Shown: positions 1 through 56,049, counted from the first letter of the stretch. The stretch: DNA of 64,000 bases from an uncultured Pseudomonadota bacterium (GCA_903885375.1 CAISIK010000054.1:3403-67402), one strand, 5' to 3'. Notes: generated by a model not told the origin, from the sequence alone. Numbers and translations are program-made.

Positions 1-293
1 TGAGTCCGAAGGCCAGCCGGTTGAACCGTGCGACACAGGGCGGCGCAAGCAGGACGGGGAAGCCCGGCCGCGTTTGCTGACACCGTAGATGGCCAGACCG
101 GGCTGAAGATCGCCTTGGGGCGTAGCGAAGGGAGACGGTGTGATTGCGGCGGCGAGAAGAGAACGGCGCGCTCCATTGACCTGAACGCTTCAGCGCTCAC
201 CAGAAGTAGACCGCCCGCGGCGCCGCGAGGGCGCCTCGGTGGCGGGCAGCGGCGCCGCGAGCGCGGGGCTTCCTGCGCGAAGGTCGGCGGCGA

Positions 294-596
294 TCAGGCC
301 CGCGAGGAGCCGTAGCGCATCGGTCGGGGAGTCGGCTCTCCCGACGAACTGCCAATGGGCACCCGCTCCCAGAGCTCGTTTTCCGGCACGCCGGCGAGAG
401 GGCCGGATGTCAGCAGGCACCGGCGCGCCTTTGGCGTCAGCGACCGCTTCCGGTGGATGAGCTCGCTCCAGTACGATCGGGAGAGGCCGAGCGAGTCGGC
501 GAAGTCCCCGTGGCTGAGGTGGTGGGCTTCGAGGCGACCCGCTACGATCGCGGCGTTCAGCCAGAAGCGTGCGGTGACGGGCGGGTGATTCTGCAT
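294..596 (-). CDS. XRE/Cro-CI-type helix-turn-helix regulator (100 aa)
   Basis: The ORF translation contains 'LSHGDFADSLGLSRSYWSELIHRKRSLTPK', a typical HTH_3-like segment. It is divergent from the 675(+) gene across 78 bp that carry a repeated motif. Confidence 0.6.
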   Translation of the reverse strand: MQNHPPVTARFWLNAAIVAGRLEAHHLSHGDFADSLGLSRSYWSELIHRKRSLTPKARRCLLTSGPLAGVPENELWERVPIGSSSGEPTPRPMRYGSSRA

Positions 597-605
597 GTGC
601 TGTCA

Positions 606-684
606 TGTGTACGCATCTGCAATCATCACATCCGCAGCCGTCGGCAGGGGTCGCTCATCTCATTGTGTGCGCATATGCAATCAC
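606..684. promoter_or_regulatory. Two copies of an operator-like motif TGTGT(A/G)CGCAT(C/A)TGCAATCA in a divergent promoter region
   Basis: 'tgtgtacgcatctgcaatca' starts at 606 and 'tgtgtgcgcatatgcaatca' at 664. The second copy overlaps the ATG at 675. A third related copy 'cgcataagcaatca' lies at 4264-4277. Confidence 0.45.
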
Positions 685-1820
685 TCGACGAGTGGCGAGT
701 TTCGAATCGAGTCGCCACTTTCGATAGAAGTGGCTACTTTCAGACCGTGGACCCTCTCGTCACAGCGCTGGAAGGCCTCGGGCTGCATTCCGAGCAGCGC
801 ATCGTGGTCGACGACCATGAGTACCAGGTCGACTTCGTGACCAGCGATCGGCGCGTCGTCCTCGAGGTGAAGCGGACGGGAGGTGGCCTGCGCGACGTGC
901 ACGCAGCAGCGCTACAGGTCGCGATGTACGCGAGTGCCCTCGGAGCCGAGCGGGGCATCGTCCTACTGTGCGGCAGCCGGGTTTCCGCGGCGGGGCTTCG
1001 CGACGAGTGGCAGAAGCTCCTCAGGGTCTTGGCGCCGGATGTCGCCAGTCGGCTGGGGCTGGTCGCCATCCTCGAGGAGGACGTCGTGATCGAGCCGGAC
1101 GAGCCGTTGTCGAGGGACATTGCCGAGGCCGCTGCGGATGCGGGGGGCCGGACTGCCCCCAAGCTGCGCGGGAACCGCTCCTTCGAAGTCATGCGCGTCC
1201 TCCTCTCGCGATGGCTGCTGCATCGCGGCCGGATCGCCGTTGGCGAGCTCCAGAGTCAAACCGGCCTGTCGCACCCAAGCGTCAGCAAGGCGCTCGCGGC
1301 GCTGGGCCCCGCGGTCGAGCGGCGACGCGATCGGAGCGTGGCGCTCCGCGCGTTCCCCAGCGAGGCATGGGCCCAGCTCGTCGCGCTGGCCCCGAAGGTG
1401 CGGCAGACCGCAGCGTTTGTGGACGAGTCGGGACGTGGCGGCGATCCCCAACGGCTGCTGGACCGCGTGCGTCGGACTCCTCCGCCCGGTGTCGCCGTCG
1501 CCGGTGTCGTCGCTGCGCGTCACTGGCACACCGGCTTGGACCTCGAAGGACTCCCCCGCCTCGACCTCTCCGTCCACGCCCCCGAGGGGGGAATGGACAC
1601 CGCCTTCGTCGCCAAGCTCGACCCCGCCCTGGTGCCCGCGCCGCCCGGTACGCCACCCTTGCTCGTCCTCCACGCGGTGCCGCGTGCAGAGAGCCTCTTC
1701 GTGCCCCTCGCCTCAGGGCCGCCCTGGGCTGACCCCGTCGAGGCGCTCCTCGACCTCTACGAGCTACGACTCATCGAGCAAGCGGACGATCTGGTCCGCG
1801 CCCTGCGGAGGACTCCGTGA
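675..1820 (+). CDS. Hypothetical protein with an N-terminal PD-(D/E)xK-like nuclease motif and a central winged-HTH (AbiEi-like antitoxin/regulator candidate)
   Basis: Internal ATG at 675 of ORF 453..1820. 'QVDFVTSDRRVVLEVK' fits the D...ExK restriction-endonuclease-fold pattern, and 'IAVGELQSQTGLSHPSVSKALAALG' is wHTH-like. The stop overlaps the next start (GTGA at 1817-1820). Confidence 0.5.
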   Translation: MQSLDEWRVSNRVATFDRSGYFQTVDPLVTALEGLGLHSEQRIVVDDHEYQVDFVTSDRRVVLEVKRTGGGLRDVHAAALQVAMYASALGAERGIVLLCGSRVSAAGLRDEWQKLLRVLAPDVASRLGLVAILEEDVVIEPDEPLSRDIAEAAADAGGRTAPKLRGNRSFEVMRVLLSRWLLHRGRIAVGELQSQTGLSHPSVSKALAALGPAVERRRDRSVALRAFPSEAWAQLVALAPKVRQTAAFVDESGRGGDPQRLLDRVRRTPPPGVAVAGVVAARHWHTGLDLEGLPRLDLSVHAPEGGMDTAFVAKLDPALVPAPPGTPPLLVLHAVPRAESLFVPLASGPPWADPVEALLDLYELRLIEQADDLVRALRRTP

Positions 1821-2704
1821 GCAGTGCTGGCACCGTCGATCCTCGTGCCCTCTTCGCGCGCCTCCGCGACGAGCTTCCCGGCGACGTGACCGACCACATC
1901 GTCGTCGTCGGGAGCCTGGCCGCGGCCTACCACCACGCCGACCAGGTGGGGCGCGGCGTGAAGACCAAGGACGCCGACCTCGTCATCCACCCCGCAGGCC
2001 ACACGGTCGCCGCCCAGGAGATCGCGACCCGCCTCCTGCTACGCGGCTGGCGCGAACGTGCTCGTGACCGGGAGCCCGGCACCGCCTTGACGCCGCCCGA
2101 CGAGTTGCCCGCAATCCGACTCTACCCGCCCGACCACGACGACTACTTCGTCGAGCTGCTCATGGTCCCCGCGGGCGAGACGCCGGGTGCGAAGCCGTGG
2201 GTGAGCGTGGAACTGCCGGGCGGCTACTATGGGCTGCCCGGCTTCGAGTTCCTCGCGCTCACGATGATTGACCGGCAGCGCGGGGCCGACGGCATCGCGT
2301 ACGCCCACCCGGCGATGATGGCGCTTGCGAACCTGCTCTCGCACCGGGAGCTGCGGCACCACGTCATGAGCGCGCCCATCGGCGGGCGGCTCGTCGAGCG
2401 CTACGCGAAGGATCTGGGGCGGGTGCTCGCGCTCGCCCGGTTGGCCAGCCGTGAAGACGTCGAAGCCTGGGCGCCTCGGTGGCTGTTCGCGTTGCAGGCG
2501 TGCTTCCCAACGAGATGGCCGGAGCTTGCCGCGTCGGTGGGTGCGGGACTCCGCGCGCTCCTCGACGATGCCGCGTTCGAGGAGGCGTGGCACTGCTGCA
2601 ACGTCGGCCTGCTCGCGAACATGGGCGTCATGGAGACGCAGCTGAGGGCGATCGCGCGGCAGGTGATCGTGGATGCGATTGAGCCGGTGGAGGGGGCGTC
2701 GTGA
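1817..2704 (+). CDS. Nucleotidyltransferase-fold protein (Pol-beta superfamily; AbiEii/DUF1814-like toxin candidate)
   Basis: The N-terminal 'VVVGSLAAAYHH...GVKTKDADLVI' matches the GS...DxD minimal-NTase signature. At 295 aa it is similar in size to AbiEii. It is translationally coupled on both sides. Confidence 0.5.
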   Translation: MSSAGTVDPRALFARLRDELPGDVTDHIVVVGSLAAAYHHADQVGRGVKTKDADLVIHPAGHTVAAQEIATRLLLRGWRERARDREPGTALTPPDELPAIRLYPPDHDDYFVELLMVPAGETPGAKPWVSVELPGGYYGLPGFEFLALTMIDRQRGADGIAYAHPAMMALANLLSHRELRHHVMSAPIGGRLVERYAKDLGRVLALARLASREDVEAWAPRWLFALQACFPTRWPELAASVGAGLRALLDDAAFEEAWHCCNVGLLANMGVMETQLRAIARQVIVDAIEPVEGAS

Positions 2705-3135
2705 TGCAAGTACAGCTCGGCGGATATCTGGTTGAGGCCGACGCCGAGGCCACCGCGGCAGCCTACGCGGGTATTTCGACCCCTGGCCCCGAGGCCTGCA
2801 AGTGCTGGTACTGTCAGAACTGGGTGGCGGGCCGCGAGCAGCTCGTGCCGCCCGCTGTCCGCGACCTGTTGGCCTCGCTCGGGATTCCGCTGGCCGGCGA
2901 GATCGAGGTCTGGGAGGTTCCAGGCGATGCGGAACCTCACATTTACGGCGGGTGGTACATGCTGATCGGGCGAGTTGTGCAGGGGCCGGTTCCGTCGGCA
3001 AGCGTCTCACGCGAAGGCTGGGACCTGACCTTCTCGCACGGCGCGAGCTACCCGGTTCCGGCCTTCGCAGGCCAGCAAATCTGTGAACTCCACTTCCTGT
3101 GCGGCGTCGGGAACTTCATCCCTGACCCCCAATGA
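2701..3135 (+). CDS. Hypothetical small protein with a 'CKCWYCQNW' Cys motif
   Basis: The ORF start overlaps the preceding stop (GTGATG at 2701-2706). I recognise no family. Confidence 0.4.
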   Translation: MMQVQLGGYLVEADAEATAAAYAGISTPGPEACKCWYCQNWVAGREQLVPPAVRDLLASLGIPLAGEIEVWEVPGDAEPHIYGGWYMLIGRVVQGPVPSASVSREGWDLTFSHGASYPVPAFAGQQICELHFLCGVGNFIPDPQ

Positions 3136-3210
3136 CGGGCGTCACGGGGTCCTTCCTGGGGCACGGTCTGCCCGTCAACGAGTCATCGGCCACGGAACGC
3201 CGCGAGGGAT

Positions 3211-3786
3211 ATGGAGTGCCCCATGCGTAGCGCAGAGGTGGCCGGCTCCCGCGTCGAGATCCTCGTCGGCGACATCACCGTCCAGGACGTCGACGCCATC
3301 GTGAACGCCGCGAACTCGTCGCTCCTCGGCGGAGGCGGCGTGGACGGTGCCATCCATCGAGCGGGCGGACCGAAAATCCTGGAGGAGTGCCGTGCCATTG
3401 TCGCGCGGCAAGGGGGCTGCAAGGCCGGTGAGGCGGTCGCGACCACGGGTGGTCGGCTGCGCGCGCGCTTCGTCGTCCACACCGTCGGCCCCGTCTGGCA
3501 GGGCGGCCTCCACCGCGAGGGTGCGGTCCTGGCGCGTTGTTGGACCCGCAGCCTCGACGTCGCTCAGGCGCGCGGCTGTCGCACGGTCGCCTTTCCGGCG
3601 ATCAGCACGGGGGCCTACGGGTACCCGATGGACGCGGCCGCGAGGGAATCGTTGCGCGCGGCCGGCACCTGGCTCCGGGAACGTCCGGGGGAGGTGGACC
3701 TGATTCGGGTGCTGCTCATGAAGGAGCGCGACGCGGAGGTGTGGTCCCAGCAGATTGGGCACCTGCTCCCCCCGCAAGGCGCTTGA
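3211..3786 (+). CDS. Macro-domain protein (ADP-ribose/O-acetyl-ADP-ribose hydrolase, YmdB-like)
   Basis: 'VGDITVQDVDAIVNAANSSLLGGGGVDGAIHRAGG', 'VVHTVGPVW' and 'VAFPAISTGAYGYP' are the canonical macro-domain motifs. Confidence 0.85.
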   Translation: MECPMRSAEVAGSRVEILVGDITVQDVDAIVNAANSSLLGGGGVDGAIHRAGGPKILEECRAIVARQGGCKAGEAVATTGGRLRARFVVHTVGPVWQGGLHREGAVLARCWTRSLDVAQARGCRTVAFPAISTGAYGYPMDAAARESLRAAGTWLRERPGEVDLIRVLLMKERDAEVWSQQIGHLLPPQGA

Positions 3787-3847
3787 TCGGCCGCGCCCTG
3801 CCCTGCGGCTTTCTGCGTGCCAGGGGGCTCGCAGATATCAGGTTCGG

Positions 3848-4213
3848 ATGTACGCCCCTCCGCCGAAGCTGAACCTCCTCGTGATCCGGTCGCCCGACAT
3901 CGACCGGGCGGCGATCTTCTACCAGACCCTCGGCCTCCTCCTCGACCTTCACTCCCACGGGTCGGGGCCCGAGCACTTCGTCGCTGTCGTGGACGGCTTG
4001 GCCTTCGAGATCTACCCGCTCTTGAAAGGGCAATTGCCGACGACCGATGCGCGGCTCGGCTTCACTGTGGACAGCGTCGATGAGCTGGTTCCGCTGCTTG
4101 AACGGGCCGGTGCGGCAGTGACCGTGCGCCCGCACGATCGCGACGGTGGGCGGCATGCGGTCGTGACGGACTTCGACGGGCATCGAGTGGAGCTTTTCAC
4201 CCCGGCCACATGA
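3848..4213 (+). CDS. Glyoxalase/bleomycin-resistance/VOC-family protein
   Basis: Internal ATG at 3848. The protein is 121 aa with a beta-alpha-beta-beta-beta-like sequence, 'LNLLVIRSPDIDRAAIFYQTLGL...GHRVELF'. Confidence 0.65.
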   Translation: MYAPPPKLNLLVIRSPDIDRAAIFYQTLGLLLDLHSHGSGPEHFVAVVDGLAFEIYPLLKGQLPTTDARLGFTVDSVDELVPLLERAGAAVTVRPHDRDGGRHAVVTDFDGHRVELFTPAT

Positions 4214-4234
4214 GGCGGGCCTCCGTTGTCGCAC

Positions 4235-4279
4235 TTGACATCGCCCCCGCACGGACTAAAGTTCGCATAAGCAATCAAC
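4235..4279 (+). promoter_or_regulatory. Sigma-70-like promoter (TTGACA-N16-TAAAGT) with an overlapping operator-like motif
   Basis: 'ttgaca' at 4235-4240 and 'taaagt' at 4257-4262, followed by 'cgcataagcaatca'. These are AT-rich hexamers in a GC-rich context, 13 bp upstream of the ATG at 4292. Confidence 0.45.
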
Positions 4280-4291
4280 GGAGCACCCCCG

Positions 4292-4834
4292 ATGCCGCGA
4301 ACCCCCAACCCGTCCCCCTCACTCGAAGTCACAGAGCCGACCGATATCGGCCGCGCGATGGGCGAAGTCGCCTTCTACCGCGAGCACAACACCGCGTTCG
4401 GGCCCTACCTCCGCAAGCTGCGCGAGGAGCGCGGGATCTCGCTCAGAGACGCGGCCGACCAGCTCGGCATGACCTTCGCCAAGCTCCAGAAGATGGAGAC
4501 TGGCGGTCGCTTCCGCATCGACAGCCTCAGCCTGTTCAGCGCGCTCGCCGACGTCTACGTCCGCCCGCGCGCTGAGGTCCTGGAGGCAGCGGGCATCCGC
4601 GTTCTGGAGCCCCACGCGCTCACCAACGAGCTGGACGAGGAGGCCGCGTTCGCCCGCCTCGTGCTGAACCCGGCGCTCCGGCCGATGCGGATGGACGACC
4701 GCTGGCTCGACTCGTTCTCGGCGCTCCAGAAGAAGCAGTGGGTCGAGTTCGCGAAGCGGCTGGAGGCCTTCTTCCACGCCGGCGGCTCGATCGCCGCGAT
4801 CCTCGAACCCGAGCCCGAAGCGAGTCCCGAATGA
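4292..4834 (+). CDS. XRE-family HTH protein with a C-terminal extension
   Basis: 'FGPYLRKLREERGISLRDAADQLGMTFAKLQKMETG' is a clear HTH_3 pattern. The stop overlaps the recombinase ATG (ATGA at 4831-4834). Confidence 0.65.
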   Translation: MPRTPNPSPSLEVTEPTDIGRAMGEVAFYREHNTAFGPYLRKLREERGISLRDAADQLGMTFAKLQKMETGGRFRIDSLSLFSALADVYVRPRAEVLEAAGIRVLEPHALTNELDEEAAFARLVLNPALRPMRMDDRWLDSFSALQKKQWVEFAKRLEAFFHAGGSIAAILEPEPEASPE

Positions 4835-6561
4835 CCGCGGTCGACAAGCCATCCGCCACGGCGACCATCCCGCGCGTCGCCATCTACGCCCGTTGCTCGG
4901 CCGACAAGCAGGCAGAGAAGGACCTCTCCATCCCCGCCCAGCTCGACGCCTGCCGGGTGGGCGCGAAGCATCGCGGCTGGGAAGTGGTCGCCGACTTCGT
5001 CGACGCCGCTGAGTCGGCCACCACCGACGACCGCCCGCAGTTCCGCGAGATGATTGCCGCTGCGAAACAGAAACCGCCGCCGTTCGACTACATCGTCGTC
5101 TGAAAGTTCAGCCGCTTCTCCCGCAACCGCGAGGACAGCGTCCTCTACAAGCGGATCCTGGAGCGCAACCGCGTGCGCGTGGTCTCGCTCAACGAGCCCG
5201 TCGACGACTCGCCGTCGGGACGGATGCTGGAGGCGATCCTCGAGTCGGTGGACGAGTTCTACAGCCAGAACCTCGCCCAGGACATCTGTCGCGGCCTGCG
5301 CAAGAACGCCTCGATGGGCTTCCGCAACGGCGGTCCGCCATCCATCGGCTACCGCAAGCGCGCGACGGGGCCGTCCGACGGTGCGCCGCGGATCATCCTG
5401 GAGCCCGACCCGCAGCGGGCGCCGCTGGTCCAGCGCATCTTCCGCATGGCCCGCGCCGGCGAGGGCGTGACGAGCATCGCCGCCGCCCTCCACGCCGAAG
5501 GGATCCGCACGCCGCGGGGCAAGTCGCTGCTCAAGACGAGCATCCACAAGCTGCTGCTCAACGACGTGTACATCGGGGTGACGACCTGGGGCGTGCACCG
5601 CACCGGGCTCCAGAAGCACAAGCCCTCCGACCCCATCAAGAAGGCCGACACCCACGAGGGCCTCGTGAGCAAGGAGGACTTCGAGCAGGTGCAGCGCATG
5701 CTCGCCGCCCGGGCGCCCGAGATCGTCAGCCAGAACACGCTCGCAAGCGACTACCTCCTCTCGGGGCTGATCTTCTGCGCGCAATGCGGCTCGCCGTTCT
5801 TCGGCCACAACGCGCGGAGCGGCGAATACCGGTACTACGTCTGCCAAAAGAAGAGGAAGCTCGGCGCCGAAGCGTGTGCCGCGAAGCCGCTGCCGAAGGA
5901 CGAGACGGAGGCTGCGGTCATCGACCTGCTCCGACGCGAGGTCCTGTCAGCGAGGTACCTGCGCGAGCTGCTCGACCTCGTGAACGAGGAGGCCGACGCG
6001 GTCGGGGTGGCCGCCCGCGCGGACGTCGAGGCCGTCGCCGCGCAGCTCGCGGACGCTCGCCGCAAGCTCGACAACCTGTACCGGGCGATCGAGGACGGTG
6101 GGATCGACCTCTCCATCCTCGCCCCGCGCATTCGCGAGGTGAGGAGCAACGTCGACACGCTGACGGCGAACCACGCGCGACTCGCGACGGCGTCCACACC
6201 GGTCGTCCGCCTCGCCGACGACGCCACCATCGCTCGCTACGTCGAGCGCCTTCGCGCGATCCCCGCGACGGGCACGCCAAACGCCCAGCGCGCCTTCCTC
6301 CGCGCCTGGATCGCGCGCATCGAGGCCGACGGCATGAAGCTGACCGTGACCTTCACGCTACCCGCCGACCTTGGCGGATCCTCCGCGAACCACGGGGAGA
6401 ACTCTGGTCGGACCAGAGTTCTGCCCCGGGTTGCGAATGGTGGAGGCGGCGGGAGTCGAACCCGCGTCCGAAGCATCATCCAACTCTCGAGATACGTGGC
6501 CTTCCGCATACCCTGCGGCGGGTGTCATCCCCTTTGGGGATCGTCAGAGCTCCCTGTTTGA
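4831..6561 (+). pseudogene. Large serine recombinase (resolvase/invertase N-domain plus recombinase and coiled-coil C-terminal domains) interrupted by an in-frame TGA at 5101-5103
   Basis: 'RVAIYARCSADKQ' carries the catalytic Ser motif. 'FDYIVV*KFSRFSRNRED' corresponds to the conserved '..vvWklDRlsRn' motif, so the stop replaces the Trp codon (TGG to TGA). ORFs 4738..5103 and 5173..6561 are in the same frame. The ORF tail runs through the tmRNA 3' end. Confidence 0.85.
6394..6426 (-). terminator. Strong GC-flanked hairpin 12 nt downstream of the tmRNA CCA end (terminator/processing signal, or a recombinase site)
   Basis: 'agaactctggtc g gaccagagttct' is a perfect 25-bp palindrome at 6398-6422, flanked by ggg/ccc. 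No U-tract follows. Confidence 0.35.
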
Positions 6562-6806
6562 ACTTCGTTCGTCCGCCGGTTGCCCATCCGCGGAGTCGCT
6601 GCGTGCCTGGATTACACCCGAATGAGGTCGGCCGGTCTCATCCGAATGCCGAGGGCTCGTAATGGCCCTCGGACTTCAACTAAGCCGCGAGGGCCTGGGT
6701 GAAGTGTTCGCTGTTGTTGGCAGCTTGGTTTTGGTTCACTCACAGCGGAACCACACTCGCCACGCCCGTCGGTATTCAGACACCTCGTCGAAACCGGTAC
6801 GCCCCC
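6438..6806 (-). ncRNA. ssrA: tmRNA (SsrA), 369 nt
   Basis: On the minus strand the 5' end is 'GGGGGCGTACCGGTTTCGACG' and the 3' end is 'GGACGCGGGTTCGACTCCCGCCGCCTCCACCA'. The acceptor stem has a G3:U pair. An internal tag ORF (6680-6721, minus) reads GCC AAC AAC AGC GAA CAC TTC ACC CAG GCC CTC GCG GCT TAG, which translates to ANNSEHFTQALAA*. Confidence 0.92.
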
Positions 6807-7417
6807 GGAAAGGAAGTGGGCGCAAGCGCCCGTTCACCCGCAGTATGCACACGGGTGCGGCATGCGGCAAGGGGTGACATCACGAAGGGCAGGGTGCTCG
6901 CCCGTCGCGATACACTGATACATGAGGCGGCCGCGTCGGATGCGTCGTGACGGCGGAGCCAGCCACCGCTGGTGACGTGCTGGATCCACATCTCGCCGCG
7001 TCGTGTTGACGTCGGGAGCCGCACCCTTGGTGGCCGCAGCGCGCCGGTTGGCGCTTCAGTGCCAAGACCTCGCGGCCCGACACATCAGGGCAGCACGTGG
7101 ATGGCTGCGCACCGCGTCACCGAACGCGCACACCGTCCGTGGTTGGGGACACATGTATCACAACGCGTATCGCCCAATGCGCGCTCGATCGCGGCCCAAG
7201 CCTGCGCTCTCCGCCCCGGGGGCGTTCCCCCTGCCCCCCAACGCGAGCGCAGGCAGGCACGAAATGCTGCCCTGCGGGCGCGCGCGACGTTCGACTGGCG
7301 GCCAGTGATACACATGATGTGTCGACGCCGGCGACCCGCCCCCGTCCCGATCCAGCCGGGCCCACTGCAGGCCGCCCGGCTCACCGGCAACCGGCAGCGG
7401 GAGGCGCGACCAGCCCG

Positions 7418-7660
7418 CCCGTCCCCCGTTTGGCCTGCCCGTGGCGAGGCGATGCACGTTCCCTCCCCGGCCGCTGTGACACACGCGCTGCCTGGCCTTC
7501 CCCCACACCATCCGGGCGAGGCGCCCAGCTTCCCGGAGCACCGCCGCCCGCCACGCGCACCCGCCCCACGAGCCGCCCCCACCCCTCCCGTCCCCCATTT
7601 GGTCTGCCGCGGAGGGGTGGCCCACGTTCCCCGCCCCGGCCATTGCGACACACGCGCGCC
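7418..7660. repeat. Two roughly 75-bp imperfect direct repeats (7418-7492 and 7587-7660) in a long non-coding region
   Basis: 'cccgtcccccgtttggcctgcc...cacgttccctccccggcc...gacacacgcgc' compared with 'cccgtcccccatttggtctgcc...cacgttccccgccccggcc...gacacacgcgc'. Confidence 0.5.
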
Positions 7661-7744
7661 TCCCCTCCCCTCCGCGATCCACCCCCGCACCCTCCACGTC
7701 CCCGCGCCCCCGGTTAGCGCCCGCGCAACGGAGACGAACTGGCA

Positions 7745-8272
7745 ATGCTCGCGGCGCTGCTCGGGACCCACGGCTTCGGCCTTCCGGCCGGCCTCGCCGT
7801 CGTTCGTGATCCGTCGGCCGAGTGGGCGGCGGGGGCCGAGGCGCTCATCGCCGCGCTGCCGCCCGCCCTCTCCTGGCAGCACGCCGGAAGCACCGCGGTG
7901 CCCGGGCTGCCGGCCAAGCCGATCTGCGACCTGGTGGGGCTCGCCCCCACGGAGCAGGTGCTGGCCGAGTTGGTAGCTCCACTCGAAGCCCTCGGCTTCC
8001 TCGCGCTAGGAGAGTTCGGCATTCCCGGTCGGTCCTTCTTCCGCCTCCGCCGGGAGGGGGTGGACTACGCGCACCTGCACACCTACGTGACCGGCCACCC
8101 CGACGCCGAGAGCGTCCTCGCGTTCCGCGATGCGCTTCGCCGCGACACTGCGCTCCGCGATGCCTACGCGGCCACGAAGTTCGCGGCGCTGGCCGCGCAC
8201 CCCCAGAGTCGGGATGCGTACACCGCCGCCAAGGCGCCCTTCATCCGCAACCAGCTCCAACGGGGGCGCTGA
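7745..8272 (+). CDS. GrpB-family protein (UPF0157)
   Basis: 'HAGSTAVPGLPAKPICDLV' together with 'FRDALRRDTALRDAYAATK' are GrpB hallmarks. Confidence 0.8.
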   Translation: MLAALLGTHGFGLPAGLAVVRDPSAEWAAGAEALIAALPPALSWQHAGSTAVPGLPAKPICDLVGLAPTEQVLAELVAPLEALGFLALGEFGIPGRSFFRLRREGVDYAHLHTYVTGHPDAESVLAFRDALRRDTALRDAYAATKFAALAAHPQSRDAYTAAKAPFIRNQLQRGR

Positions 8273-8354
8273 CTCGCGGTGAGGCCCGCCCTGCCCCCGC
8301 CCGGCCCGGCCTACGCCCCCCCAAATCGGCAACCCGCACCCTCGCGGGAACGGC

Positions 8355-9350
8355 TCAGCCGATCGTGGCGAGCAGCTCGCGCTCCACCAACGCCACCGCC
8401 TCGGCCACGGGCAACGCGATCGACGCCCCGGCCGCCTTGGCATGGCCGCCACCGGCGGGGCTGATGCGCTTCGCGAGGGCCGACACGTCGACCTCGCCGC
8501 GCGACCGGAGCGACAGCTTGGTGCGCCCCGCGTTCTTCTCGATCACCAGCGCCGCGACCTCGATACCCTCGACGTGCTGGAGCGCATCCACGATGCCCTC
8601 CACATCTCCATCGTCGGCCCCCACGTCGGCCGCCACGGCGTGCGTGTACACGCCGATGAGCACCCGACCGCCCGCGACCAGGCGCGCGGCATCGCAAACC
8701 CGCGACTGCAGGCGCAGCCCGGCGAGGCGACGGTCCATCAGCACGCGCTCGCAGATGCGGTGGTGCTCGATGCCCAGCGAGAGCAGCTCCGCGGCCACGA
8801 GGTGCGTCTGCGCGTTGGTGTTGCTGTAGCGGAAGGCGCCCGTGTCGAAGATGATGCCGGTGTAGAGGTGCTCGGCGAACGCGCGGTCGAGCGGAACCTC
8901 CCAGGCGGCCAGCAGCTTGCGCACCATCACGCAGGTGCTCTCGGTGGTGGGCTCGAGCCAGGGGAGGGTGTACCCCGAGAGGTCGCTCGATCGGTGATGG
9001 TCGATGAGGCCCGTCCAGCGGGCGCTCGCGAAGGCCTCGGCCACGCGCGGCGGCAGGCGCGTGCGGTCGCCATCGAGCACCACCACGCCATCGTACGCGC
9101 CCACGCGCGCATCCGGGAGCATGGCCTCGCTGCCGACGAGAAACTCGTACCGGGAGCCAGGGGAGCCCGCCACGTCCACCCGCAGGCCGGGCGCCACGAT
9201 GCGGAGCGCCCGCTGCAGCGCGAGACAGGCGCCGATGCTGTCCCCATCGGGGCCCTCGGGGCCGGTGAGGAGCACGCTGGAGCTCTGGCGGAACGCGGCG
9301 AGGAAGGCGTCGGACGGGATCAAGGGCAGGGGCCGGGAAGCTGGCGGCAT
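8355..9350 (-). CDS. DHH/DHHA1 phosphoesterase (NrnA-like oligoribonuclease/pAp phosphatase)
   Basis: Internal ATG at 9350 of ORF 8355..10223. Motifs seen are 'GPDGDSIG', 'VVLDGD', 'LIDHHRSS' (DHH) and 'GGGHAKAAG' (DHHA1). Confidence 0.8.
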   Translation of the reverse strand: MPPASRPLPLIPSDAFLAAFRQSSSVLLTGPEGPDGDSIGACLALQRALRIVAPGLRVDVAGSPGSRYEFLVGSEAMLPDARVGAYDGVVVLDGDRTRLPPRVAEAFASARWTGLIDHHRSSDLSGYTLPWLEPTTESTCVMVRKLLAAWEVPLDRAFAEHLYTGIIFDTGAFRYSNTNAQTHLVAAELLSLGIEHHRICERVLMDRRLAGLRLQSRVCDAARLVAGGRVLIGVYTHAVAADVGADDGDVEGIVDALQHVEGIEVAALVIEKNAGRTKLSLRSRGEVDVSALAKRISPAGGGHAKAAGASIALPVAEAVALVERELLATIG

Positions 9351-9419: not shown

Positions 9420-11288
9420 ATGATCGACCCCGAAACCGCGCCCGAGGGCGCGGAGGCCGCGGCCCCCAAGGCGCCCGCCCGCAGTGACTACAAGAGCGAC
9501 CGCACCTTTGCGGATTTCCCCATCTCCCCCGCCGCCCTTCAGGCGCTCGGCGACATGGGCTACGTCAACGCCACCCCGGTGCAGGCCGCCACGATCGAGC
9601 CGGCCCTCGCGGGCAAGGACCTGATCGTCCGCGCCAAGACCGGCACCGGCAAGACCACGGCCTTCGGCCTCCCGATGATCGAACGGGTCGAAGCCGGCGC
9701 CCGCGCCACGCAGGCCCTCGTGCTCACCCCCACCCGCGAGCTCGCCGTGCAGGTGGCCCAGGAAGTGGCGCTGCTCGCGAAGTACCGGGATGTCCGCATC
9801 ACCGCGATCTACGGCGGTGTCGGCTTCCCCCCCCAGGAAGATGCGCTTCGTGCCGGCAGCGAGATCGTGGTCGGCACGCCCGGCCGCCTGCTCGACCACA
9901 TCCGTCGCGGCAACCTCAAGCTCGACCAGACCCGCGTAGTGGTGCTGGATGAAGCCGACGAGATGCTCTCGATGGGCTTCTTCGAGGATGTGCGGAAGAT
10001 CGTGGGCGCCTGCGCCCCCGACCGGCAGACGATGCTGTTCTCCGCCACGCTCGATGAGTCGCTGCGTGGCTTCGCGAACAACTACATGAAGAGCCCCGAG
10101 GACCTGCACCTGAGCGCCGATGGCGACAACGTGCACCTCATCCAGCACTTCCTGTACGAGACCTCGCCCGACTACCACAAGGCCCGCGCGCTGCTCGATC
10201 TGATCGAGCTCGAGCGCCCGCACTCGGCGATCATCTTCTGCAACACACGCGAAGATGTATCAACCGTCTACACCTACCTCGATCGTCAGGGTCTGGGCGT
10301 GGAGATGCTCTCGGGCGAGCTCGCCCAGAAGCAGCGCGAGCGCGTGATGGCGCGGATCAAGGGCGGCGCGGTGCAGTTCCTCGTGAGCACCGACGTGGCG
10401 GCCCGCGGGATCGACATCAGCAACCTCTCGCACGTCATCCACTACGCGCTCCCGGAAGATGCGTCGGTGTACCTGCACCGCTCGGGCCGTACCGGCCGAA
10501 TCGGCAACGAAGGCACGGTCATCGTGCTTGCCGGTGGCGCCGACTTCTCCACGCGGCTCACGCTGGAGCGCCAGCACAAGATCAAGTTCGAGCTGAAGGT
10601 GCTCCCCACGGGTGAGGAGAGCGCCAAGCTCCGGACCGACCGCTTCGTGCGCATGGTGAAGGAAGCCTCCGGCACCATGGTGTACGACTCGATGCTCGAT
10701 GCCGCCAAGGCGATCAAGCAGCGGCCCGACGCGGACATGCTCATCGCCGTGGCGCTCAAGGCGTTCATGGAGTGGGATCGCAAGCGGAAGTTCGCGGCGG
10801 CCGATGCCGCGGCCGACGAGGCGGGCGAGGAGCGCCCCGAGCGTACCGAGCGCCCCCCCCGGCGCGATGAAGGTCCGCGCGGCGGCGGTCGGGATCGGAA
10901 CGACCGGCCGGGTGGTCGCCCCGACCGCGGCGATCGCCGCGATGCCGGCCCGCGGGATGGTCGTCGCGAAGGCGGTCGCGAGGGCGGTCGCGAGGGTGGC
11001 CGTGATGGCCAGCGGCGCGATGAGGCCCGTCCCCCGCGCCCCGAGCGTGTGGAAACCCGCGAGCACACCCCCCGTCCGGTGGCGGAGGTCGCGCCGAAGG
11101 CCGAGATCGCGCCCCAGAGCGAGGGTGCCGAGGGTGGCGAGGGCGGTGCAGAGGGCGCCGCCTCCAAGCGGCGGCGTCGTCGGCGGCGCAGCGGCGGTCG
11201 CGGTGAAGGTGGCGGCTCCGAGGGCGCCGGCTCCGAAGGCGGCGGCTCCGAGGGCGGCGGCTCCGAAGGCGGCGGCTCCGAGGACTGA
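9420..11288 (+). CDS. DEAD-box ATP-dependent RNA helicase with a long Arg/Gly/Asp-rich and GGSEG-repeat C-terminal tail
   Basis: Q-motif 'ATPVQAATI', Walker A 'AKTGTGKT', 'VLDEADEM', 'SAT', 'HRSGRTGR'. The tail reads 'GGREGGREGGREGG...GGSEGGGSEGGGSED'. Confidence 0.92.
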   Translation: MIDPETAPEGAEAAAPKAPARSDYKSDRTFADFPISPAALQALGDMGYVNATPVQAATIEPALAGKDLIVRAKTGTGKTTAFGLPMIERVEAGARATQALVLTPTRELAVQVAQEVALLAKYRDVRITAIYGGVGFPPQEDALRAGSEIVVGTPGRLLDHIRRGNLKLDQTRVVVLDEADEMLSMGFFEDVRKIVGACAPDRQTMLFSATLDESLRGFANNYMKSPEDLHLSADGDNVHLIQHFLYETSPDYHKARALLDLIELERPHSAIIFCNTREDVSTVYTYLDRQGLGVEMLSGELAQKQRERVMARIKGGAVQFLVSTDVAARGIDISNLSHVIHYALPEDASVYLHRSGRTGRIGNEGTVIVLAGGADFSTRLTLERQHKIKFELKVLPTGEESAKLRTDRFVRMVKEASGTMVYDSMLDAAKAIKQRPDADMLIAVALKAFMEWDRKRKFAAADAAADEAGEERPERTERPPRRDEGPRGGGRDRNDRPGGRPDRGDRRDAGPRDGRREGGREGGREGGRDGQRRDEARPPRPERVETREHTPRPVAEVAPKAEIAPQSEGAEGGEGGAEGAASKRRRRRRRSGGRGEGGGSEGAGSEGGGSEGGGSEGGGSED

Positions 11289-35664: not shown

Positions 35665-35948
35665 CCGCCCCGACGGCGCCGCGTCCTGCACGGCCCACCA
35701 ACGCCAGGCCGCCGCAGCAAGCCTCAACGGCGCTTCGACGGCGCCCTCGACAGCGCCGCCCCGCCAGCGCGGTGACGGGCTGGGTGACCGTGCGGGCCGA
35801 CCCGACCGATGCCCGTTGCGGGCCGACGGAGGGCCGGACCGCGCCGGCAGGACCCCACACCGACCTTCCGGTCGCCCCCTCTCAGGGCGCGACGACGAAT
35901 CGCCGCCCCGACGGCGCCGCGTCCTGCACGGCCGCCGCTCGGAGCTCA
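35665..35948. repeat. 284-bp direct repeat, copy 1 (bounded internally by a 31-bp direct repeat)
   Basis: It aligns to 36875-37158 at a constant offset of 1210 bp, with 9 mismatches and no indels over the last 282 bp by eye. 'ccgccccgacggcgccgcgtcctgcacggcc' occurs at both 35665 and 35903. Confidence 0.85.
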
Positions 35949-36874: not shown

Positions 36875-37158
36875 CCGCCCCGACGGCGCCGCGTCCTGCA
36901 CGGCCCATGAACGCCAGGCCGTCGCAGCAAGCCTCAACGGCGCTTCGACGGCGCCCTCGACAGCGCCGCCCCGCCAGCGCGGTGACGGGCTGGGTGACGG
37001 TGCGGGCCGACCCGACCGAGGCCCGTTGCGGGCCGACGGAGGGCCGGACCGCGCCGGCAGGACCCCACACCGATCTTCCGGTCGCCCCCTCTCAGGGCGC
37101 GACGACGAATCGCCGCCCCGACGGCGCCGCGTCCTGCACGGCCGCCGTGGGGAGCTCA
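36875..37158. repeat. 284-bp direct repeat, copy 2
   Basis: See copy 1. It ends 5 nt before the metK stop codon (37163-37165). Confidence 0.85.
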
Positions 37159-55693: not shown

Positions 55694-55808
55694 GCCGAAC
55701 GGCCGGCGCGCCGCGACCGGCCGCTGGGGTTGCCAGGGCACGCGCGCGCCGGGCGCGATCGTGGCGGGTTCCGCCTGGTGGCGGCGGACCGCCGACCCCG
55801 GCAGCAGG

Positions 55809-55955
55809 CGCGTAGCTCGACCTTCTCCGGCCAGAACCCCGAGCTACGCGTCGTGGCGGCGCTTGGCTCGACCTTCGACGGCCACAACCCCGAGCTACGC
55901 GTCGTGGCGGCGCTTGGCTCGACCTTCGACGGCCACAACCCCGAGCTACGCGTCG
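55809..55955. repeat. 51-bp tandem repeat (about 2.8 copies) with hairpin potential; REP/BIME-like
   Basis: The unit 'gctcgaccttc(tc/ga)cggcca(g/c)aaccccgagctacgcgtcgtggcggcgcttg' starts at 55815, 55866 and 55917. There is an exact 11-bp inverted repeat, cgcgtagctcg (55809-55819) with cgagctacgcg (55840-55850). Confidence 0.8.
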
Positions 55956-56049
55956 GGGTGGCGCGCGGCGGGCGCGCGGCCACAGGAGGCACTCACAAAA
56001 CTCGCGGGAACGCTTGCCACCTCGCGCCGGGTGCCTACCCTGCGCCGCC

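Follow-up and report, generated by a model that had tools for sequence, protein, structure and literature searches.

A probable decayed integrative element whose large serine recombinase gene converges on a transfer-messenger RNA gene

Serine integrases are the main tools for the insertion of large DNA, and those of phages such as A118, TP901-1, SPbeta (SprA), Bxb1, and phiC31 use protein-coding or intergenic sites with a shared core of 2 bp. To our knowledge, serine integrases are thought to avoid tRNA and transfer-messenger RNA (tmRNA) genes. Among large serine recombinases (LSRs), the CcrAB(C) enzymes of SCCmec integrate at the 3′ end of rlmH (orfX), a target that is not inactivated, whereas the classical islands and prophages at the tmRNA gene (ssrA) are tyrosine-integrase elements, as the work of Williams from 2002/2003 and the Islander/TIGER work are said to describe. 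Here, we examine an LSR gene that converges on ssrA in a 64,000-nucleotide (nt) stretch from an uncultured Pseudomonadota bacterium (GCA_903885375.1, CAISIK010000054.1:3403-67402; this whole stretch is referred to as the window), and we argue that positions ~211-6437 (~6.2 kb) are, with a probability of roughly 0.8, the immobilized and fixed remnant of a small ssrA-targeting integrative element.

The closest described systems are the ssrA islands of Dehalococcoides, whose integrase, DsiB, is a CcrB-like LSR of 540 amino acids (McMurdie et al. 2011, BMC Genomics 12:287; PMC3146451). These islands have a 20-bp ssrA repeat with a break in the T-loop, are arranged in tandem, and are regarded as integrative mobilizable elements; the 3′ end of the DsiB gene always overlaps the att site, its stop codon is reached only beyond the island, in ssrA or in the next island, and the tail beyond the island is regarded as probably a non-functional part of the protein (PMC3146451). 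The largest survey, made with TIGER, later found the use of tRNA or tmRNA genes (t(m)RNA) in 14 of 297 serine-integrase elements (4.9%) versus 44.5% for tyrosine integrases, and described such use by serine integrases as not reported before and as still requiring proof (Mageeney et al. 2020; PMC7192596), thereby overlooking the Dehalococcoides case. A sequence-only reading of the window made before this analysis had called a serine-recombinase island at ssrA unusual. Given the TIGER figure this is fair, yet it is not new, because the arrangement had already been described in Dehalococcoides.

The present locus resembles the DsiB islands in that an LSR gene stands in terminal position beside ssrA, overlaps it with its 3′ end, and has no stop codon of its own, a layout that is also found in the related loci L004-L006, L008, and L013. 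An ssrA 3′ segment serving as a repeat, the break in the T-loop, and tandem islands are likewise common to both, although the 26-bp repeat seen here is that of a tyrosine-integrase island, and the likeness rests on the described architecture rather than on a comparison with the DsiB sequence. The two differ in host (Chloroflexota there, a high-GC, Myxococcota-like metagenome-assembled genome (MAG) here) and in gene content: the six-gene module with the small serine recombinase DsiA, RecF-like, ParB, and Mom is lacking at this locus, which instead carries XRE-type and Cro-like helix-turn-helix (HTH) regulators, a macro-domain protein, a VOC protein, and proteins of unknown function, with primase and VapE genes in its intact relatives. 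Moreover, the copy described here is pseudogenized, and a distal repeat was not found. With the classical tyrosine-integrase islands at tmRNA genes, one of which occupies this very site in sister populations (L090/L001), the locus shares a target reaching from the 3′ end to the T-loop, an integrase gene abutting an intact ssrA, and tandem arrays with defense-type cargo, but the recombinase families (serine versus tyrosine) are unrelated. SCCmec offers a parallel in that its LSR acts at the very 3′ terminus of a conserved housekeeping gene, in tandem islands at one site, and in being non-conjugative; in contrast to the present case, its target is protein coding, CcrA and CcrB usually act together, and their genes lie internally and do not read across the junction. 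The phage serine integrases share the architecture of Resolvase, Recombinase, and zinc ribbon with coiled coil, but here the element lacks phage structural genes and the target is a t(m)RNA gene.

A broken large serine recombinase gene that runs into ssrA

A full-length tmRNA gene with an encoded CCA lies at 6438-6806 on the minus strand according to both ARAGORN and Rfam (RF00023, 97.6 bits, model positions 1-374), and its 3′ end at 6438 is where the sequence-only reading had put it. The acceptor stem is paired, with a G3:U wobble present. The plus-strand open reading frame (ORF) 5173-6561 converges on this gene and finds its first stop, as had been stated, only at 6561, 124 nt within ssrA. 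The frame that starts at ATG 4831 contains a Resolvase domain (PF00239, E 1.5e-31, residues 16-163 of the repaired protein), a Recombinase domain (PF07508, E 1.3e-21), and a Zn_ribbon_recom domain (PF13408, E 6.9e-17) in Pfam searches, and because of these three domains the converging gene is assigned to the LSRs. The LSR motif RVAIYARCSADKQ around the nucleophilic serine is conserved among homologues, and the best matches among solved structures are TP901-1 (E 8e-17), SPbeta SprA/YokA, and A118.

While the identification of the neighboring gene as an LSR gene thus holds, the gene is not intact. An in-frame TGA at 5101-5103 replaces a tryptophan, W91 (context VVWKFSRFSRN), which is invariant in 17 homologues and is also W in L004-L006 and L008-L012. 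This stop separates the catalytic serine from the remaining LSR protein, whereas the homologues have uninterrupted reading frames. Gene callers split the gene into products of 90 and 462/487 amino acids in every independent assembly seen (>10), and because the identical split gene occurs in every independent assembly with the locus, the TGA is not a sequencing error.

LSR homologues with 70-95% identity are numerous, and in them, too, the frame continues at the C-terminus into the complement of a tRNA-like 3′ end. Their tails diverge with the downstream sequence in the homologue alignment, ending in ...VANGGGGGSRTRV at ssrA and in ...VANGDPNGI-stop at tRNA-Glu. In the window, the corresponding 124-nt run-on begins with GGGGGSRTRVRS... 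and is probably not a functional part of the LSR protein.

Two further observations concern the tmRNA gene itself. The tag peptide called by ARAGORN (ANTSPRPSRLS-stop, window 6700-6760, minus strand) looks like a frame mis-call; reread as GCU GCC AAC AAC AGC GAA CAC UUC ACC CAG GCC CUC GCG GCU UAG, the tag is AANNSEHFTQALAA-stop, with the usual ...ALAA ending, in agreement with the ARAGORN tag of the relative L005, ANNSNHFSERLAA. On the promoter side of ssrA there is an indel: window 6853-8358, which contains a GrpB-family gene (7745-8272) and, upstream of ssrA, ~900 nt of non-coding DNA, is not present in the close relative L003, where a DHH phosphoesterase gene stands almost directly after ssrA.

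Anatomy, decay, and spread of the element

In the intact relatives (L004, L006, L008, L009, L011, and L147), the LSR gene is followed leftwards by an XRE-type HTH gene, cargo, an opposite-strand Cro-like HTH gene, and then primase-like and VapE-type helicase genes. The primase/VapE module is missing from the window, where only the small HTH gene has been kept: blastn homology to L004, L006, and L008-L011 starts at window 211-257, beyond which there is a primase gene in those loci and unrelated DNA here. From this stop in homology at ~211 and the presence of the module in the intact relatives, it follows that the replication module has been lost. All of the at least 20 contigs with flanking genes keep the remnant with the same left flank, only a second island at this site being polymorphic, and neither presence/absence polymorphism nor an excised circle of the LSR remnant was found among them. 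Since all assemblies show the nonsense codon together with one and the same left flank, we regard the element as a fixed, dead remnant. The earlier proposal of a bounded ssrA island spanning 1-6437 therefore survives in part: the DNA is that of an integrative element with the LSR as its ssrA-proximal terminal gene, but it is a dead, fixed remnant rather than a bounded, active island, and its homology to intact relatives begins at ~211. The features are as follows.

211-293, no strand: left limit of the DNA that matches intact relatives; a breakpoint left by deletion or rearrangement, not an att site (blastn)
294-596, minus: small Cro-like HTH gene, 100 amino acids, backbone (gene call in all source contigs; conserved in L004, L006, and L008-L011)
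675-1820, plus: 381-amino-acid protein of unknown function, accessory (L004 and L006 at 79-89% DNA identity; no Pfam, PHROG, or PADLOC match)
1817-2704, plus: 295-amino-acid protein of unknown function, accessory (one blastn block with the 381-amino-acid gene; no family match)
2704-3135, plus: 143-amino-acid protein of unknown function, variable cargo (within the variable segment 2694-4228; no family match)
3223-3786, plus: macro-domain protein, 187 amino acids, variable cargo (PF01661, E 4.5e-43)
3848-4213, plus: glyoxalase/VOC-family protein, 121 amino acids, variable cargo (PF00903, E 1.6e-6)
4292-4834, plus: XRE-type HTH regulator, 180 amino acids, backbone, translationally coupled to the LSR gene by an ATGA overlap (HTH_31, E 9e-11)
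4831-5103, plus: N-terminal LSR fragment, 90 amino acids, with the catalytic-serine motif YARCS, ending at TGA 5101-5103 (translation, alignment)
5104-6437, plus: remainder of the LSR (rest of Resolvase, Recombinase, zinc ribbon, coiled coil) in the same frame, with the conserved end ...VLPRVAN (Pfam; homologues at 70-93% identity)
6398-6422, no strand: 12-bp inverted repeat without mismatches, AGAACTCTGGTC-G-GACCAGAGTTCT, in the sequence that encodes the LSR C-terminus and 15 nt past the tmRNA 3′ end
6438-6463, no strand: 26-bp ssrA 3′-terminal segment (CCA, acceptor 3′ strand, T-arm 3′ strand, T-loop, and 3 nt of T-stem), att core/direct repeat of a tyrosine-integrase island
6438-6561, plus: run-on of the LSR frame into ssrA, 124 nt (ORF stop position)
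6438-6806, minus: ssrA, intact, the integration target (ARAGORN and Rfam, full length)

The XRE-type HTH gene and the LSR gene are conserved together in all close relatives, while the cargo segment 2694-4228, with the 143-amino-acid ORF and the macro and VOC genes, is replaced in L004 and L006 and absent from L005. The exact 295-amino-acid protein occurs on at least 16 contigs. The assignment of 294-596 as Cro-like HTH comes from a motif read by eye, Pfam having given no match for the frame; the overlapping minus-strand frame 190-606 was discarded for this gene in view of its GC content at third codon positions (GC3), 0.62 versus 0.84 for 294-596, and of the gene calls. Comparisons among loci by tblastx were abandoned as too noisy at 70% GC. 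Pfam found no tyrosine integrase gene (Phage_integrase, PF00589) in 1-6437, the element has no virion or phage structural genes, and no viral relative of the LSR above 33% identity, nor any phage attP form, was present among IMG/VR contigs. Because close IMG/VR relatives and virion genes are lacking, an integrative mobilizable or satellite-like element is likelier than a prophage, and the original element was probably of that kind.

Iterated short motifs (GTAGCGC, GGAAGCG) occur in the relatives beyond the HTH gene, at the far end of the replication module (L008:5580-5650, L004:330-420, L009:2040-2130, and L010:4340-4430); these clusters resemble iterons and may mark the origin. The hairpin at 6398-6422 is conserved as a structure in nine ssrA-type relatives, in which 87% of cells are paired and 4 of the 12 pairs have changed on both sides, compared with 20-50% in slid controls. 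Judged from the sequence, it may serve as an insulator or terminator between the convergent LSR and tmRNA transcripts, or as a recombinase-binding repeat.

The backbone has spread horizontally. The identical junction ...GCGAA/TGGTGGAGG..., with intact LSRs, is present in L013 and in four ssrA-type relatives (L004, L005, L006, and L008) in which the DNA beyond ssrA has no similarity to the window, and the chromosomal flank is shared, at 83% identity, only by L003, a true close relative. The block of HTH and LSR genes is 88-89% identical to that of L004-L006, while ssrA itself is 78-85% identical, and because the block is more similar than ssrA, horizontal transfer is indicated. Among these loci, L005 (CALQBK020000010.1) is labeled as a Bifidobacterium breve MAG and carries a Myxococcota-type ssrA and LSR element that match the window at ~89% DNA identity; an error of binning or labeling is almost certain.

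The family layout toward ssrA is primase and VapE-type helicase, Cro-like HTH, variable cargo, XRE-type HTH, and terminal LSR. In the integrated state, the LSR frame, having no stop of its own, runs into ssrA, which stays intact. Decay would then have involved (i) a TGG-to-TGA change truncating the LSR after 90 amino acids and (ii) deletion of the replication module, with fixation of the remnant in the population. The 3′ end of ssrA is still used as attB; in sister populations, an island with a tyrosine integrase, Prim-Pol, and restriction-type cargo appears to have inserted between the remnant and ssrA, duplicating 26 bp. Under such a scheme, the LSR itself would presumably have catalyzed the original integration, with a crossover near its 3′ end.

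The recombinase family and a second island at the same site

To place the LSR in its family, one genome per GTDB species was scanned, which gave 449 LSR relatives, and the best 80 loci were examined. At 49 of them, a tRNA or tmRNA called by ARAGORN converges on the LSR gene, with its 3′ end within the LSR ORF and an overlap of at least 22 nt; as the ORF ends inside the t(m)RNA in 49/49 of these relatives, the run-on, which the sequence-only reading had tied to an attachment site at the 3′ end of the recombinase gene, is a family trait. At another nine loci, all that is found at the LSR end is a 3′ fragment of a t(m)RNA, and in L007 (same contig as L003) a tmRNA missed by ARAGORN was detected by BLAST, so that at least 59 of the 80 abut or carry a t(m)RNA 3′ end; six of the remaining loci have no more than 153 nt after the LSR gene and are largely uninformative. 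The target is ssrA in L004, L005, L006, L008, and L013, tRNA-Glu in L011 and L012, and elsewhere mostly tRNA-Asn, with tRNAs for Gln, Asp, Ser, Arg, Met, Ala, Ile, and His also seen. The hosts include Myxococcota, Dehalococcoidia, Elusimicrobiota, Omnitrophota, Verrucomicrobiota, Ignavibacteria, Planctomycetota, and others, the Dehalococcoidia relatives being ~40% identical and located at tRNA-Asn. Because this pattern is family-wide and extends over many phyla, the LSR-t(m)RNA junction belongs to the recombinase family as such and is no chance feature of this one genome.

The t(m)RNA fragments beside LSR genes fall into two types: those of ssrA end in the T-loop and measure 23-25 nt (L009, L010, and L147), and those of tRNA-Asn mostly end in the anticodon loop, with 41 nt in L024, L036, L050, and L069 and 55 nt in L022. 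In four of these loci (L024:2516-2600, L069:1993-2080, L036:11557-11640, and L050:11551-11640), the 41-nt tRNA-Asn 3′ half, which breaks inside the anticodon, is followed by a short hairpin and a GGACTAT-like motif, with no 5′ half; this stretch may be the P′ arm of an attP or the left end of a neighboring island. In L050, an intact tRNA-Asn gene lies 3.3 kb further on. The contigs L009 and L147, each ~30 kb and with 179 nt in common after the ssrA fragment, were considered as possible circular attP forms. In L043:247-3350, two LSR genes of the family stand tail to tail, 78 nt apart.

A second element has used the same ssrA gene. Window 1-6463 is matched with 100% identity by contigs L001 and L002, which beyond that point continue into McrA-like, TPR, and HsdR genes. 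Contig L090 comes from the sample that also yielded L001; its identity with the window begins exactly at 6438 and extends rightwards, and leftwards it carries HTH, Prim-Pol, and a 382-amino-acid Phage_integrase gene that ends 5 nt from ssrA. The same integrase end was seen in L092 and in 11 similar places. The simplest reading is that sister populations have gained a second island, inserted between ssrA and the LSR remnant, with an exact 26-bp repeat on either side; this repeat corresponds to 6438-6463, within the stretch of ssrA into which the LSR frame extends. The proposal that the ssrA 3′ end is an island attachment site is thus borne out by the junctions at 6463 (L001) and 6438 (L090): it is a live attachment site in this species, as demonstrated for the tyrosine integrase, and the locus is a documented case of one tmRNA gene that has served an element of the serine type as well as one of the tyrosine type. 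The 26-bp block was also considered as the att core of the LSR; because the inserted island in L090 ends in the tyrosine integrase, 5 nt from ssrA, it is not assignable to the LSR, and this was rejected. Islands have accumulated in tandem downstream of ssrA in relatives as well, L009, L010, and L147 having an ssrA fragment after the LSR gene and then defense genes. Pieces of the second island are available at L090:1-6027, L001:14648-18192, and L002:9980-16220, with type I HsdR, McrA-like, and TPR genes at the far end; the contigs break inside the island.

Competing explanations and implications

Several results weigh against the interpretation as an integrated remnant. A second copy of the ssrA 3′ end (TGGTGGAGGCGGCGGGAGTCGAACCC) was sought with exact seeds, with the 26-mer allowing up to 6 substitutions, and by gapped local alignment with a null distribution; just as the sequence-only reading had found none in 1-6400, there is none in the whole window. 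That reading had placed the other boundary probably upstream of the window, but the leftward extension by ~8-10 kb gave no repeat, with nothing above chance in the further 8.2-9.7 kb available in L001, L148, and L149; in all, about 16 kb contained no distal boundary. Because a distal copy was not found, the flanking ssrA repeat typical of DsiB islands was not seen here, the island is not delimited by att sites, and integration is not directly demonstrated. No close relative supplied an empty ssrA site, a DHH-anchored search of metagenomes having returned five loci, none with ssrA nearby, and no circular or attP form of the element was identified. The sole proven att duplication at ssrA belongs to the tyrosine integrase, and the tandem arrangement is pieced together from separate contigs (L001 and L090). 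Nor is the composition of the region distinct, with a GC content of 0.69 versus 0.706 (standard deviation 0.03) in the rest of the window. Two candidate distal repeats, a resemblance at window ~140-170 and a 17/19 match at 4803-4821, were dismissed as not above background. The intact relatives also have no ssrA repeat within 10 kb upstream, and in the 49 relatives with a called t(m)RNA, no tRNA 3′-end repeat within 10 kb upstream of the LSR was longer than in downstream controls, the single exception being a cross-match to a different tRNA. Because of the missing repeat in intact relatives, members of the family are expected either to exceed 10-12 kb or to have very short repeats, the latter being usual for serine recombinases (PMC5704250).

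Could the element instead be a still-mobile ssrA island whose distal repeat lies beyond the window? The LSR is otherwise well kept, with 91-95% amino acid identity to intact homologues and no further stops, no repeat is found inside the window, and the intact relatives without a repeat in 10 kb suggest that family members may be large. We nevertheless consider this unlikely: the TGA at the invariant W91 parts the catalytic serine from the rest of the protein, a single allele with a single left flank in every assembly examined indicates a lack of mobility, the primase/helicase module is missing with an abrupt end of homology at ~211, and no repeat appears in the ~8-10 kb further left. It is considerably less probable still that the LSR was a passenger, incidentally adjacent to ssrA after another integrase, such as a lost tyrosine integrase, had brought the region there. 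The identical LSR-ssrA junction recurs in five other genomic backgrounds, a converging t(m)RNA contains the end of the LSR ORF in 49 relatives that span many phyla, far beyond chance, a tyrosine integrase was found by tblastn in only 1 of 81 family loci, and in Dehalococcoides the same architecture has been attributed to the LSR (PMC3146451). These observations have to be set against the tyrosine-integrase island with its 26-bp core at this ssrA site in the same species, and against att fragments beside LSR genes elsewhere that are not assignable to a particular integrase.

Finally, the genes beside ssrA might be ordinary core-genome genes and not an island at all, as could be argued from the fixation of the region in the population, its GC and GC3 values, which are typical of the genome, and the lack of an att duplication. 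Such an explanation is already contradicted by the comparison across genomes and has next to no probability in our view, given that the backbone adjoins ssrA even where the flanks of the genomes are unrelated and is better conserved than ssrA itself, that the cargo is variable, and that the content is that of a mobile element (an LSR and two HTH regulators, with primase and VapE in the relatives). A fixed remnant of an LSR element thus remains the preferred interpretation.

As a dead remnant, the copy in the window is itself of little functional consequence. The LSR-ssrA arrangement is uncommon and already described in Dehalococcoides, and the more interesting lead is the widespread t(m)RNA-targeting clade. 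This locus and its ~450 relatives suggest a sizeable, coherent clade that targets t(m)RNA 3′ ends with one stereotyped architecture, which widens the finding made in Dehalococcoides to Myxococcota and many candidate phyla and points to integrases with natural targets among the most conserved bacterial sequences. A more far-reaching version, which we regard as unlikely, would make the LSR a member of a large, multi-phylum serine-integrase clade specialized on tRNA/tmRNA 3′ halves, using ssrA and tRNA-Glu in Myxococcota and mainly tRNA-Asn in Dehalococcoidia, Elusimicrobiota, Omnitrophota, Verrucomicrobiota, and others. In this version, attP would lie over the 3′ end of the integrase gene and the C-terminal tail would be exchanged with each integration or excision, so that the tail swap or the convergent overlap with the highly transcribed t(m)RNA could switch integrase expression, stability, or directionality; if true, the clade would also supply serine integrases with near-universal natural landing sites.

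Some minor observations were made outside the element. About 3.4-3.5 kb left of the window (L001:4669-4769), at least four independent assemblies (contigs L150, L151, L152, and L154) break in the same ~100-nt stretch inside a 398-amino-acid gene, and in a fifth contig (GnBR2ZBZ) the last called gene is truncated at the same stretch; the shared break suggests a repeat or a strain-variable junction and could be relevant to the missing left boundary. Elsewhere in the window, and unrelated to the element, there is a pair of 284-nt direct repeats (35665-35948 and 36875-37158; 97% identical, 1210 nt apart), a 51-nt unit in three tandem copies at 55807-55969, and, at 11193-11281, a set of 15-nt tandem repeats that forms the low-complexity tail of a DEAD-box helicase.

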